Source of the DNA: Escherichia phage teqhad
Length of the DNA: 64,000 bases
Strand: one strand, 5' to 3'
Sequence record: NC_054933.1
Positions 21,576 to 24,774 of this stretch are shown here, in pieces. The notes under the pieces were generated by a model. That model was not told the DNA's origin. It was given only the letters and a program-made list of their open reading frames with translations, and made no database searches. The stretch's first letter is position 1. Each line of letters opens with the position of its first letter. A program made the position numbers and the translations under genes.

Positions 21576-21776
21576 ATGGTACAAAAATTAATGGCACTTG
21601 TTAATGCCATCAAAGGTAATAAAAAGCGTATAGCTTTTACTATTTCTGCTATGGTAGGAATTTTACTCTGGAACTTTATTTTATCACCTGTTGCAATTGC
21701 ACATGGTATTAATATTCCAGTAGTTACTCTTGATACATTCGTAGATTTAGCATTTGCTTTAGTTGGGTTAATTTAA
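21576..21776 (+). CDS. small membrane protein on the plus strand (66 aa, two predicted TM segments)
   Basis: AAGGAGG SD 4 nt before the ATG; hydrophobic; convergent with gene 61. Confidence 0.45.
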   Translation: MVQKLMALVNAIKGNKKRIAFTISAMVGILLWNFILSPVAIAHGINIPVVTLDTFVDLAFALVGLI

Positions 21777-22803: not shown

Positions 22804-22968
22804 TTACTCTTCTTTTTCTTTAGATTCCTCTTTTTTCTTTTTAGGAATCTGTTCAGGACCTTTATTTACTACAGCGCCTGATGTTGTTCCAGTAGAGATA
22901 TTTTCAGGACTACCACCTGAATCTCCAGCGACCATATCTTCTTTGATAAATTCTTTATATGTTTTCAT
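22804..22968 (-). CDS. small hydrophilic protein (54 aa)
   Basis: Hand-translated MKTYKEFIKEDMVAGDSGGSPENISTG...; its start lies inside repeat copy 1. Confidence 0.35.
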   Translation of the reverse strand: MKTYKEFIKEDMVAGDSGGSPENISTGTTSGAVVNKGPEQIPKKKKEESKEKEE

Positions 22969-22969
22969 A

Positions 22970-23326
22970 TTAACCTCTATTCATAAAAGCATTAAAAATT
23001 TGGTCATCAATAGATAGTGCAGTAATATTTTCTGCATCATTTAGCAAATCATTAATTTCATCAGATAGCATAACACATGTACCTTTATTTCCTGTAATTG
23101 TTACTGCGCAATTACGAACGTTTTCTTTATTAAATTTTAGGTTAATATTTTCGTAATGAAAATCCTTTAATGCTGAATATATTTTTAAAATAAAATTGTC
23201 TTTTACTACAATAAACCCAACCTCACTATTAAAACGTGGTTCATGGAAACTGTAATAAACCTTTTCATCTATAAAATCGTATGAAATTTTTTCCATTTTT
23301 AAATATGAAAATTCAGAACTATACAT
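22970..23326 (-). CDS. 61.1-like hypothetical protein (118 aa); paralog of the C-terminal half of the next gene
   Basis: Ends ...SIDDQIFNAFMNRG; GFIVVKDNFILKIY aligns to GGIFVKDNRITRIIY in 23328..23954. Confidence 0.55.
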   Translation of the reverse strand: MYSSEFSYLKMEKISYDFIDEKVYYSFHEPRFNSEVGFIVVKDNFILKIYSALKDFHYENINLKFNKENVRNCAVTITGNKGTCVMLSDEINDLLNDAENITALSIDDQIFNAFMNRG

Positions 23327-23327
23327 A

Positions 23328-23954
23328 TTAATCTCTATTCATAAAAGCATTAAAAATTTGGTCATCAATAGAAACATTTACTTTAGACTGTTTTTCAGAT
23401 GGCAATTCATATCCACATATTACAATTTTATGATCAATATCAAAATACACAGAAGCAATATGATTAATGCTGTTTTCAGTAAAGTCTAAATCAACATCAA
23501 TATCTTTTTGACCAAAGCCCAAAGGATAAATAATGCGAGTAATTCGATTATCTTTAACAAATATTCCACCGACATACTCTGTGCTGCGTTTAAAGTCTAC
23601 ACGCCGACGAAATGAAAAATATTCAGGCTCTTTATGAGCTCGGCTCATAGGGCACAACGAATAACTAGAATAAGAGATGTCAAATCCTACGCCTTCAATA
23701 TGAACTAAATTGTCATGATTAAACCAATTATAATCATATGCCAAGTCCATTAGATTGTCATATGTGAAAGGCACCGGATTAACATCATTGGTCACAAGCA
23801 TATAATTAGCAACTGCTATAATTTCATTATTTTTAACGAATACAAACCGTGATTGATGCGAATGACCTGGACCCGCGTTTTCACGATTAATGATATAACA
23901 CTGGGCACCTTTATATTTGTATGTATCTTTGCACTTGTGCATTTGATAGAGCAT
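23328..23954 (-). CDS. 61.2-like hypothetical protein (208 aa)
   Basis: Ends ...SIDDQIFNAFMNRD; AGGTGA SD. Confidence 0.55.
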   Translation of the reverse strand: MLYQMHKCKDTYKYKGAQCYIINRENAGPGHSHQSRFVFVKNNEIIAVANYMLVTNDVNPVPFTYDNLMDLAYDYNWFNHDNLVHIEGVGFDISYSSYSLCPMSRAHKEPEYFSFRRRVDFKRSTEYVGGIFVKDNRITRIIYPLGFGQKDIDVDLDFTENSINHIASVYFDIDHKIVICGYELPSEKQSKVNVSIDDQIFNAFMNRD

Positions 23955-24247
23955 TATTCACCTACCACTTCAGCGATGATATTTTTATTATTAAAGTTTT
24001 TATCGCAATACAGAACATAATTATACTGCATTACACCACCAGACTTAAGCTGTTTTTGCACTTCGGCTTTCATTTCAGGACGATCGCGCTCAACGATATT
24101 CATAATATCTGCTTCAATTTGGGTTTCAACCTCAGTCTGATCAGCAGTCATAGACCATTCGCACAAATCTTTATCATAACCTGCCATAGCAGGCTGAGCA
24201 GCACAAGAAGCTAAAGCAAAAATTGCAGCAAAGATAAATTTTTTCAT
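23954..24247 (-). CDS. sp: Spackle-like periplasmic protein (97 aa, signal peptide)
   Basis: Signal peptide MKKFIFAAIFALASCAAQPAMA; 97 aa as T4 sp; position between 61.2 and 61.4. Confidence 0.6.
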   Translation of the reverse strand: MKKFIFAAIFALASCAAQPAMAGYDKDLCEWSMTADQTEVETQIEADIMNIVERDRPEMKAEVQKQLKSGGVMQYNYVLYCDKNFNNKNIIAEVVGE

Positions 24248-24305: not shown

Positions 24306-24563
24306 TTATTTTAAAACTTCTGCATAATCACATGTTACAAACTGTTTCTCTAGCTTGACGATTTTACGAAAATACCTTTTGCATTGACGAATCTGCCGCT
24401 TCGTAGGGCGAACAGCAAACTTAATAAATTCCACTCGACCAAATGGAGGGCTTTCTTCTGCTGGAATATCTAACACCAATTCCCACGTATCTGCAATAAG
24501 TGCTTTGAATTGCGTATTTTTCCTGGCGTTATACGGAGTAGGTTTAAATAAAACAATATGCAT
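24306..24563 (-). CDS. 61.4-like small protein (85 aa) adjacent to dmd
   Basis: GAGGAT SD; TAATG coupling to dmd. Confidence 0.5.
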   Translation of the reverse strand: MHIVLFKPTPYNARKNTQFKALIADTWELVLDIPAEESPPFGRVEFIKFAVRPTKRQIRQCKRYFRKIVKLEKQFVTCDYAEVLK

Positions 24564-24564
24564 A

Positions 24565-24747
24565 TTATCCTCGGCAATCTACTTCACATACTTTCTTGTC
24601 ATCAATGAAAGCTTTAACTAATGCTTTATTAACTTCAGCATATTGAGTAGTAGCCCATTGAACGTCATCTTTCATCATTGTGATTTCTTTAGTAAACATG
24701 CTTTCATTCTTAAACCACCCCATAAAAACTACCTTTACCAATTCCAT
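24565..24747 (-). CDS. dmd: Dmd (60 aa)
   Basis: MELVKVVFMGWFKNESMFTKEITMMKDDVQWATTQYAEVNKALVKAFIDDKKVCEVDCRG matches my memory of T4 Dmd; the track ORF is extended 5 codons at the N-terminus. Confidence 0.75.
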   Translation of the reverse strand: MELVKVVFMGWFKNESMFTKEITMMKDDVQWATTQYAEVNKALVKAFIDDKKVCEVDCRG

Positions 24748-24774
24748 AACAATCTCCCCCATTTAACCAACAAG

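Follow-up and report, generated by a model that had tools for sequence, protein, structure and literature searches.

We analysed a 64,000-nucleotide (nt) stretch of the genome of Escherichia phage teqhad (sequence record NC_054933.1; hereafter designated as the window), a Tequatrovirus (T4-like) genome, with regard to a 49-bp direct repeat found at the ends of two adjacent genes between sp and 61.1. The genes of this region are encoded on the minus strand in the order of gp41 helicase, dmd, 61.4 (tifA), sp, an open reading frame (ORF) for 208 amino acids (aa), an ORF for 118 aa, 61.1, and gp61 primase. The last two ORFs before the primase gene and the 208-aa ORF, which a preliminary description of the window had placed at 22804-22968, 22970-23326 and 23328-23954, were recovered exactly as described. 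The 208-aa ORF (23328..23954) matched PF23813 over its full length (454.6 bits, the cut-off being 27; residues 1-207 align with profile positions 1-210), and T4 gp61.2 is likewise located between sp and 61.1; the gene is the T4-type allele of adfA (T4 61.2), encoding anti-DarT factor A (AdfA). AdfA, which the LeRoux laboratory described as an anti-DarT factor, binds DarT1 directly and thereby neutralises it, the determinant being a His residue at the position called 164 in RB69 AdfA, and the deletion of adfA from T4 gave no phenotype (PMC11257639). His165 in the INHIAS motif of the protein encoded in the window is aligned with this determinant. The 118-aa ORF (22970..23326; phrog_4122, RB32ORF033c-like), henceforth B, encodes a single-domain protein, lies between adfA and 61.1, and is bounded by both copies of the repeat. 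Its dN/dS (ratio of nonsynonymous to synonymous substitution rates) of 0.2-0.35 indicates purifying selection, and its counterpart in RB32 has been annotated as 'similar to gp61.2'. 61.1 (22804..22968) encodes 54 aa, and its start codon and ribosome-binding site are supplied by one of the repeat copies.

Repeat finding and a pattern search both confirmed the direct repeat as originally reported, with copies at 22966-23014 and 23324-23372 that are spaced by 358 bp and identical at 48 of 49 bases. The 49-mer occurs exactly twice in the window, and no repeat match was obtained in 100 dinucleotide-preserving shuffles, so that none is expected by chance. On the minus (coding) strand, each copy comprises 14 codons (S I D D Q I F N A F M N R G/D), TAA, a single T and ATG. 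The shared C-terminal tail is thus SIDDQIFNAFMNR followed by G or D; it comprises 14 residues including Ser, rather than the 13 residues counted previously, and the stop codon does not overlap the next ATG as had been supposed, one base lying between the two (TAA-T-ATG). A GAGG-type ribosome-binding site is embedded in the last codons of the tail, ahead of the ATG of the next gene. Copy 1 (22966..23014), the downstream copy on the coding strand, contains the final 14 codons of B (SIDDQIFNAFMNRG) with its TAA stop, and then a single spacer base before the ATG of 61.1; it is identical at 49 of 49 bases to the single copy of T4 and to that of T2. In copy 2 (23324..23372), the upstream copy, the final 14 codons of adfA (…MNRD) lead to TAA, and the ATG of B follows after one spacer base. 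The single mismatch in copy 2, GAT for GGT, changes Gly to Asp and converts GAGG to GAGA before B. This arrangement is not an assembly artefact, because the same adfA-B junction was found in 152 independent phage records.

Comparison among T-even-type phages revealed that the slot between sp and 61.1 harbours, in every lineage examined, one or two genes drawn from three families, all of which end in the same tail. Family A corresponds to AdfA (the 208-aa T4-type allele and alleles of 210-216 aa), family B comprises proteins of 117-119 aa, and family C comprises proteins of ~145 aa (phrog_8539) without any Pfam domain, which occupy the position of adfA after sp in Gaprivervirus and Dhakavirus. 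The slot contains A alone in T4, PE37 and RB69-like phages; B alone in T2; A and B in the window, RB32, wV7 and Sf21; C alone in VR5, VR26 and JS98; and C with a B relative (B') in VR7, VR20, VR25 and SP18. In the phage record collection to which all record counts given here refer, the region as a whole was represented by about 629 records, adfA by 485 and B by 297. An A+B junction of the window type was present in 152 records (the A+B state was counted in about 156 Tequatrovirus), and the B-only junction of the T2 type in 141. C was detected in 86 records and B' in 34 records of Gaprivervirus and Dhakavirus; a B-like gene with a second copy of the tail stood behind C in 34 of the 86 C records. 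The gene behind this second tail in the phages with C and B' (VR25, VR20, VR7, SP18, P8, MN01, UPEC01 and ECML-359) was variable, encoding 73 aa, 63 aa or other products.

The tail was identified in at least four lineages of Tevenvirinae, namely Tequatrovirus, RB69-like phages, Gaprivervirus (VR5, VR7, VR20, VR25, VR26 and SP18) and Dhakavirus (JS98, JS10 and Bp7), with the consensus (S/A)(I/V)DDQIFNAFM(N/K)(R/K)(G/D). The stop codon behind it is TAA (in occasional cases TAG or TGA), and the ATG of the next gene comes after what is usually a single T (A in the RB69-like loci). The gene-to-gene junction is conserved as well, always reading ...GGTTAATATG before whichever gene comes next, and ...GAGGTTAATATG is nearly universal among the tails compared. 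A search of IMG/VR with a degenerate tail pattern retrieved 16 contigs; all of the 15 that were read represent this locus, the remaining one (VR26-like) has the same flanks of a C gene, and the search found the tail nowhere else in viral genomes, indicating that it is confined to the sp-61.1 locus. Across lineages, the nine codons of DDQIFNAFM always encode the same amino acids, while synonymous differences exist at no fewer than five of their third positions; the next three codons add two more synonymous variants (AAT/AAC and AGA/CGA). The tail peptide is therefore under purifying selection. AlphaFold2 models of AdfA and B, both of low confidence, predicted the tail to be helical.

The preliminary description regarded the repeat as the footprint of a partial tandem duplication, by which the 3' half of adfA was recently copied in place and left the repeat as the remnant of the duplicated segment. 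The two genes are indeed adjacent, co-oriented and identical at their ends; BLASTP with the tail included aligned B with AdfA at 34% identity over 105 aa (E = 3e-9), and the PF23813 model matched the 118-aa protein at 33.5 bits (cut-off 27), with residues 22-118 placed on profile positions 113-211. The nucleotide sequences do not bear out this history. Identity between adfA and B drops from 48 of 49 bases to background exactly at the edge of the repeat: third codon positions are identical at 14 of 14 sites inside the tail, whereas only 19 of 51 are identical outside it in the best protein alignment, and blastn of adfA against B detected no similarity outside the 49 bp (best E = 0.19, in a match that was not collinear). 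Furthermore, B is the solitary occupant of the slot in the 141 T2-type records, and Gaprivervirus carries B', 45% identical to B, behind the different gene C, which implies that the B family predates the split of these genera. B is thus an old, independent gene, as it occurs alone in T2-type phages, stands beside C in Gaprivervirus and is under purifying selection. We conclude that the repeat was not left behind when A and B separated, and a recent duplication in place is highly improbable.

Whether B and the C-terminal half of AdfA are paralogs, as was also claimed, is a separate matter, in which the claim fared partly well. When the tail was removed from both proteins, profile-profile comparison (hhalign) of B with AdfA yielded P = 7e-4 to 2e-3 and shuffle tests yielded p = 0.002-0.03; a shuffle test anchored at the tail gave p = 0.003-0.005 for Tequatrovirus pairs and was not significant against RB69-like AdfA. 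Outside the tail, the proteins are thus weakly similar (P about 1e-3), and the genes show no similarity at the nucleotide level. On the other hand, the Pfam assignment, which is also found among the precomputed labels of B homologs (PF23813), depends on the tail: the 118-aa protein without its tail gave no match to the AdfA model, even at E <= 10. In addition, the best alignment of the Gaprivervirus B' was with the N-terminal half of AdfA, not with the C-terminal half. The N- and C-terminal halves of AdfA bear a weak likeness to each other (hhalign P = 5e-4; FVFVKNNEII and GGIFVKDNRI), and AdfA may have arisen by internal duplication of a ~95-residue domain, of which B and C contain one copy each. 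Besides the tail, the element common to A and B is a short motif, G-x-I-x-VKDN-x-I.

Structural data and wider searches were of limited help on this point. The AlphaFold2 models of AdfA and B (pLDDT, predicted local distance difference test, of 57 and 70, respectively) are too low in confidence for a trustworthy comparison of folds. A Foldseek search of BFVD with the AdfA model returned one B-family and one C-family protein as the best non-self matches, a suggestive result, albeit in a comparison of poor models with a score that includes the tail. Sequence search of the PDB with AdfA gave no matches and hence no solved structure, and HMMER search of AdfA against 1.84 billion representative sequences detected one full-length relative and three fragments, with no link to other families and essentially no relatives outside the T-even phages. 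We also noticed a 102-aa metagenomic protein, of which residues 1-28 are identical to residues 103-130 of AdfA (HMMER aligns residues 1-39 at 77% identity); the remainder resembles the N-terminal region of a pyruvate formate-lyase-type enzyme, and the sequence is probably a chimeric assembly. Altogether, A and B are at most distant relatives, for which relatedness beyond the tail is plausible rather than firmly established.

The repeat had further been proposed to be a ready substrate for unequal recombination, and the natural polymorphism of the locus agrees well with this proposal. The window differs from T4, and RB32 from PE37, by a clean 358-bp insertion/deletion (indel) that corresponds to B plus one copy of the repeat. 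In T4, PE37 and three further loci, one 49-bp copy joins adfA directly to 61.1 with no other scar. The copy remaining in T4 and PE37 is of the downstream type, and this single copy equals the product expected from a repeat-mediated deletion. Exchange of alleles is bounded by the copies in the same manner: teqdroes and Sf21 are almost identical in adfA and in 61.1/61, whereas their B alleles are 83% identical, and the number of mismatches per 40 nt is 0-1 through adfA, rises to 4-10 between the two tails, and returns to 0-2 after the second tail. T4-type adfA comprises two sub-lineages, each of which exists with and without B. Separately, adfA itself is mosaic (window 23372-23390). PE37 combines a 5' half of the 210-aa type with a 3' half of the T4 type, the latter being 99.7% identical to that of RB32, and the wV7-type alleles are patchworks, so that recombination breakpoints must be present inside adfA as well.

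Synonymous variants inside the tails offer a second line of evidence. The tails of T4-type adfA equal the B tails at every synonymous site. In VR20 and UPEC01, the two copies differ only in the last codon and in the stop, which is TAG upstream and TAA downstream, whereas in their relatives VR25 and VR7 the copies differ at three synonymous sites and in the terminal GAT/GGT codon. The tails of Sf21 and wV7 are reciprocal mosaics of synonymous variants. Such patchy sharing of synonymous variants within genomes points to gene conversion between the copies. These data bear on an alternative account, in which selection alone constrains the peptide as well as the embedded start context and ribosome-binding site, with neither exchange between the copies nor any special role in recombination. 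That account agrees with the nine residues invariant in all lineages, with the nearly universal junction, and with the tandem genomes that keep 3-5 differences between the copies. It fails to explain why synonymous third positions that vary freely between lineages are identical or mosaically shared within genomes, why the boundaries of the indel and of the allele swap coincide with the copies, and why genomes with A only, carrying the adfA 3' sequence of each sub-lineage, exist beside genomes with A and B. We therefore regard selection alone as an unlikely explanation; the module is, as far as the compared sequences tell, kept similar by selection together with gene conversion.

We also considered that the repeat could be a signal in the nucleic acid that merely overlaps the coding sequence, such as a T4 middle promoter, a promoter/terminator cassette of the PeSL type (an early promoter with a stem-loop terminator, treated below) or an RNA hairpin. 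The motifs TCTATT and AATAGA at the ends of the repeat are complementary to each other. By eye, the coding strand AATGCTTTTATGAATAGAGGTTAATATG contains TGCTTTT, which resembles a MotA box, followed after 12 bases by TAATAT, which resembles a -10 element at the right spacing. Nevertheless, a scan found neither a sigma-70-type promoter nor a terminator in either copy; the RNA folds no better than its shuffles (z of -0.3 to -1.2), and the fold is absent from the copies of VR20. The TGCTT core is broken in the tails of Gaprivervirus, Dhakavirus (GCC) and RB69-like phages (GCA), all of which keep the peptide. RNA structure was accordingly rejected, since the folds are at the level of shuffles and are not conserved in Gaprivervirus; a MotA-box middle promoter was judged unlikely, since other genera conserve the peptide but not the core of the box. 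As a whole, a nucleic-acid signal has very little probability as the explanation of the repeat.

At the protein level, we examined whether the tail resembles the binding motif for the gp45 sliding clamp. The C-termini of gp43 and gp55 represent this motif, S-L-D-F-L-(F/Y). The candidate was rejected, as SIDDQIFNAFMNRG shares only S-(I/L)-D with the end of gp43 in the window (...ASLDFLFG); comparison of the tail with the C-terminus of gp55 in the window gave no match to the motif either.

In our judgement, the repeat is probably the conserved 3' end module of every gene that occupies the sp-61.1 slot, and its copies probably act as joints for the loss, gain and exchange of B. The module would have two jobs, namely (i) to encode a C-terminal peptide that is predicted to be helical and appears to be kept by purifying selection, and (ii) to carry the stop codon, the GAGG ribosome-binding site and the ATG of the following gene. 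It would be present twice in the window because two slot genes lie in tandem. Judging from the comparative data, homologous recombination or gene conversion between the copies would keep them near-identical, synonymous sites included, and a crossover between the copies would remove B together with one copy cleanly, giving rise to the arrangement of T4 or PE37. During mixed infection, crossovers within the copies could likewise swap or add B alleles while leaving reading frames and translation starts intact.

Several observations weigh against this interpretation. Firstly, homogenisation of the copies is incomplete, as genomes with the 210-aa adfA allele and B (wV7, teqdroes, UFV05 and O157kw) keep 3 differences in 49 positions. 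Secondly, the terminal codon is never homogenised: the upstream and downstream endings differ in 18 of the 18 tandem genomes read, with ...AGA GAT, ...AAG CGA GAT or ...AAA GGT upstream and ...AGA GGT, ...AAG CGA GGT or ...AAA CGA GGT downstream. Thirdly, the tract is so short that its identity could partly stem from common descent, combined with selection acting on the peptide and on the ribosome-binding site. Finally, recombination at the copies is inferred from comparison of genomes, and the sole 'copy-number variant' in the database, that of Yersinia phage phiD1, is an assembly artefact. As to the terminal codon, all single-copy Tequatrovirus genomes end in AGA GGT. We also noted that the differing upstream ending weakens the GAGG ribosome-binding site before B (window 23324-23332 compared with 22966-22974).

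The record of phiD1 (HE956711.1 16857-20360, locus 1307-1549) shows the 49-bp repeat four times, along with two B genes and one ORF for 33 aa, and could be mistaken for a natural variant in copy number. The extra 194-bp segment opens with an Illumina TruSeq adapter riddled with Ns (AGATCGGAAGAGCACACGTCTGAACTCCAG), in which 20 of the 20 called bases in the first 30 positions of the adapter match. The record was thus rejected as a natural variant; it is a misassembly that was seeded at the repeat. The repeat can mislead assemblers, as this one GenBank record demonstrates.

The B-only state is exemplified by T2 (MH751506.1, locus 2454-2823), in which B occupies the adfA slot directly after sp and is labelled as 'gp61.2' in GenBank. 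The 12-nt spacer between sp and B in T2, TTAGAGGTTAGT, matches the last 12 nt of a tail at 10 positions, which hints that the T2-type state may derive from the tandem state; no clean microhomology deletion junction could be reconstructed for it. T2 has been described as naturally lacking an adfA homolog (PMC11257639). The presence of B as the only occupant of the slot qualifies the statement that T2 has no relative of adfA.

The repeat lies next to a counter-defence cluster, as had been stated, since the neighbourhood corresponds to the published dmd-tifA-adfA island (PMC9391042). The left flank of the variable slot is sp (spackle; 23954..24247, minus strand; PF25676), which is conserved and whose stop codon overlaps the start codon of adfA (TAATG). 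Beyond it, tifA (61.4; 24306-24563) and dmd (24565-24762), both on the minus strand, make up the remainder of the island, and a sigma-70-like early promoter was located at 24806-24778. The genes dmd (anti-RnlA), tifA (anti-ToxN) and adfA constitute the 'anti-TA (anti-toxin-antitoxin) island' of Srikant et al. (PMC9391042), and each of these characterised genes neutralises a bacterial toxin. B is a well-motivated candidate for a counter-defence gene because it is intact, is under purifying selection, occurs in ~300 T-even phages including T2, and bears the C-terminal peptide of AdfA; from its sequence and position, it may reasonably be regarded as such. It is tempting to extend this idea to the whole slot. 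The tail might serve as a functional handle shared by A, B and C, such as a helix for docking or inhibition, with these three representing alternative specificity domains of one anti-toxin (anti-DarT-like) family; the slot would then be a site for swapping or stacking counter-defence specificities, with the tail and junction as a universal in-frame joint, and T2 would possess a different specificity rather than none. We put this forward as a speculation of rather low probability.

Three further observations concern the genes around the slot. In several records, 61.1 bears the label 'major capsid domain-containing protein', likely a misannotation that has been propagated. For teqsoen (MN895436.1, locus 1015-1203), the annotated 61.1 is a longer ORF that overlaps with the primase gene, suggesting an indel. 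On the plus strand of the window, a hydrophobic ORF for 66 aa (21576-21776) separates the primase gene from the gene upstream of it; the annotations of T2 and Sf21 liken this ORF to RB69ORF029w, a predicted membrane protein, and T4 lacks it at this position.

Nothing described here overturns the current understanding, because homologous recombination between short direct repeats is well established in T4. The mechanism is ordinary for T4-type phages, while the form of the joint, a coding tail, was not found described in the literature searched. The repeat provides a clean natural example of how a module at a coding end, which carries the start signals of the next gene, allows an accessory gene to be added, removed or exchanged while the operon remains unbroken. 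With respect to AdfA (PF23813), the 208-aa gene is a full-length member of the family, and the 118-aa protein shares the tail and the G-x-I-x-VKDN-x-I motif; it differs in being about half as long, in having Asn at the determinant position, and in escaping recognition by Pfam once the tail is removed.

In PeSL shuffling, short conserved sequences similarly lie on either side of non-essential genes within plastic genome regions of T4-type phages, and recombination between them yields insertions, deletions and replacements between close relatives (Arbiol et al. 2010, PMC2839356; Comeau et al. 2014, PMC4122927). PeSLs consist of an intergenic early promoter and a stem-loop terminator, whereas the repeat described here consists of a coding tail and a translational junction and is restricted to one locus; it is not a PeSL cassette, because it is coding and contains no promoter, terminator or stable hairpin. 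T4 is also known to amplify and delete sequences in the same island through 6-10 bp microhomologies within few passages (Srikant, Guegler and Laub 2022, PMC9391042). Those events share with the present case the island, the recombination machinery, and direct repeats flanking a counter-defence-type gene that is gained or lost. They were selected in the laboratory, used unique microhomologies of 6-10 bp and amplified dmd-tifA; here, no amplification was seen, and a standing 49-bp repeat bounds the natural presence/absence and allele polymorphism of another gene. Finally, the copies recall the concerted evolution of tandem paralogs, in that a short, near-identical tract, synonymous sites included, is embedded in saturated paralogs, and variants are mosaic within genomes. 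Unlike usual concerted evolution, homogenisation does not extend to the last codon (Gly versus Asp or Lys) in any of the tandem genomes read, and the tract spans only ~42-49 bp at the extreme 3' end of the gene, where it carries the start signals of the next gene.

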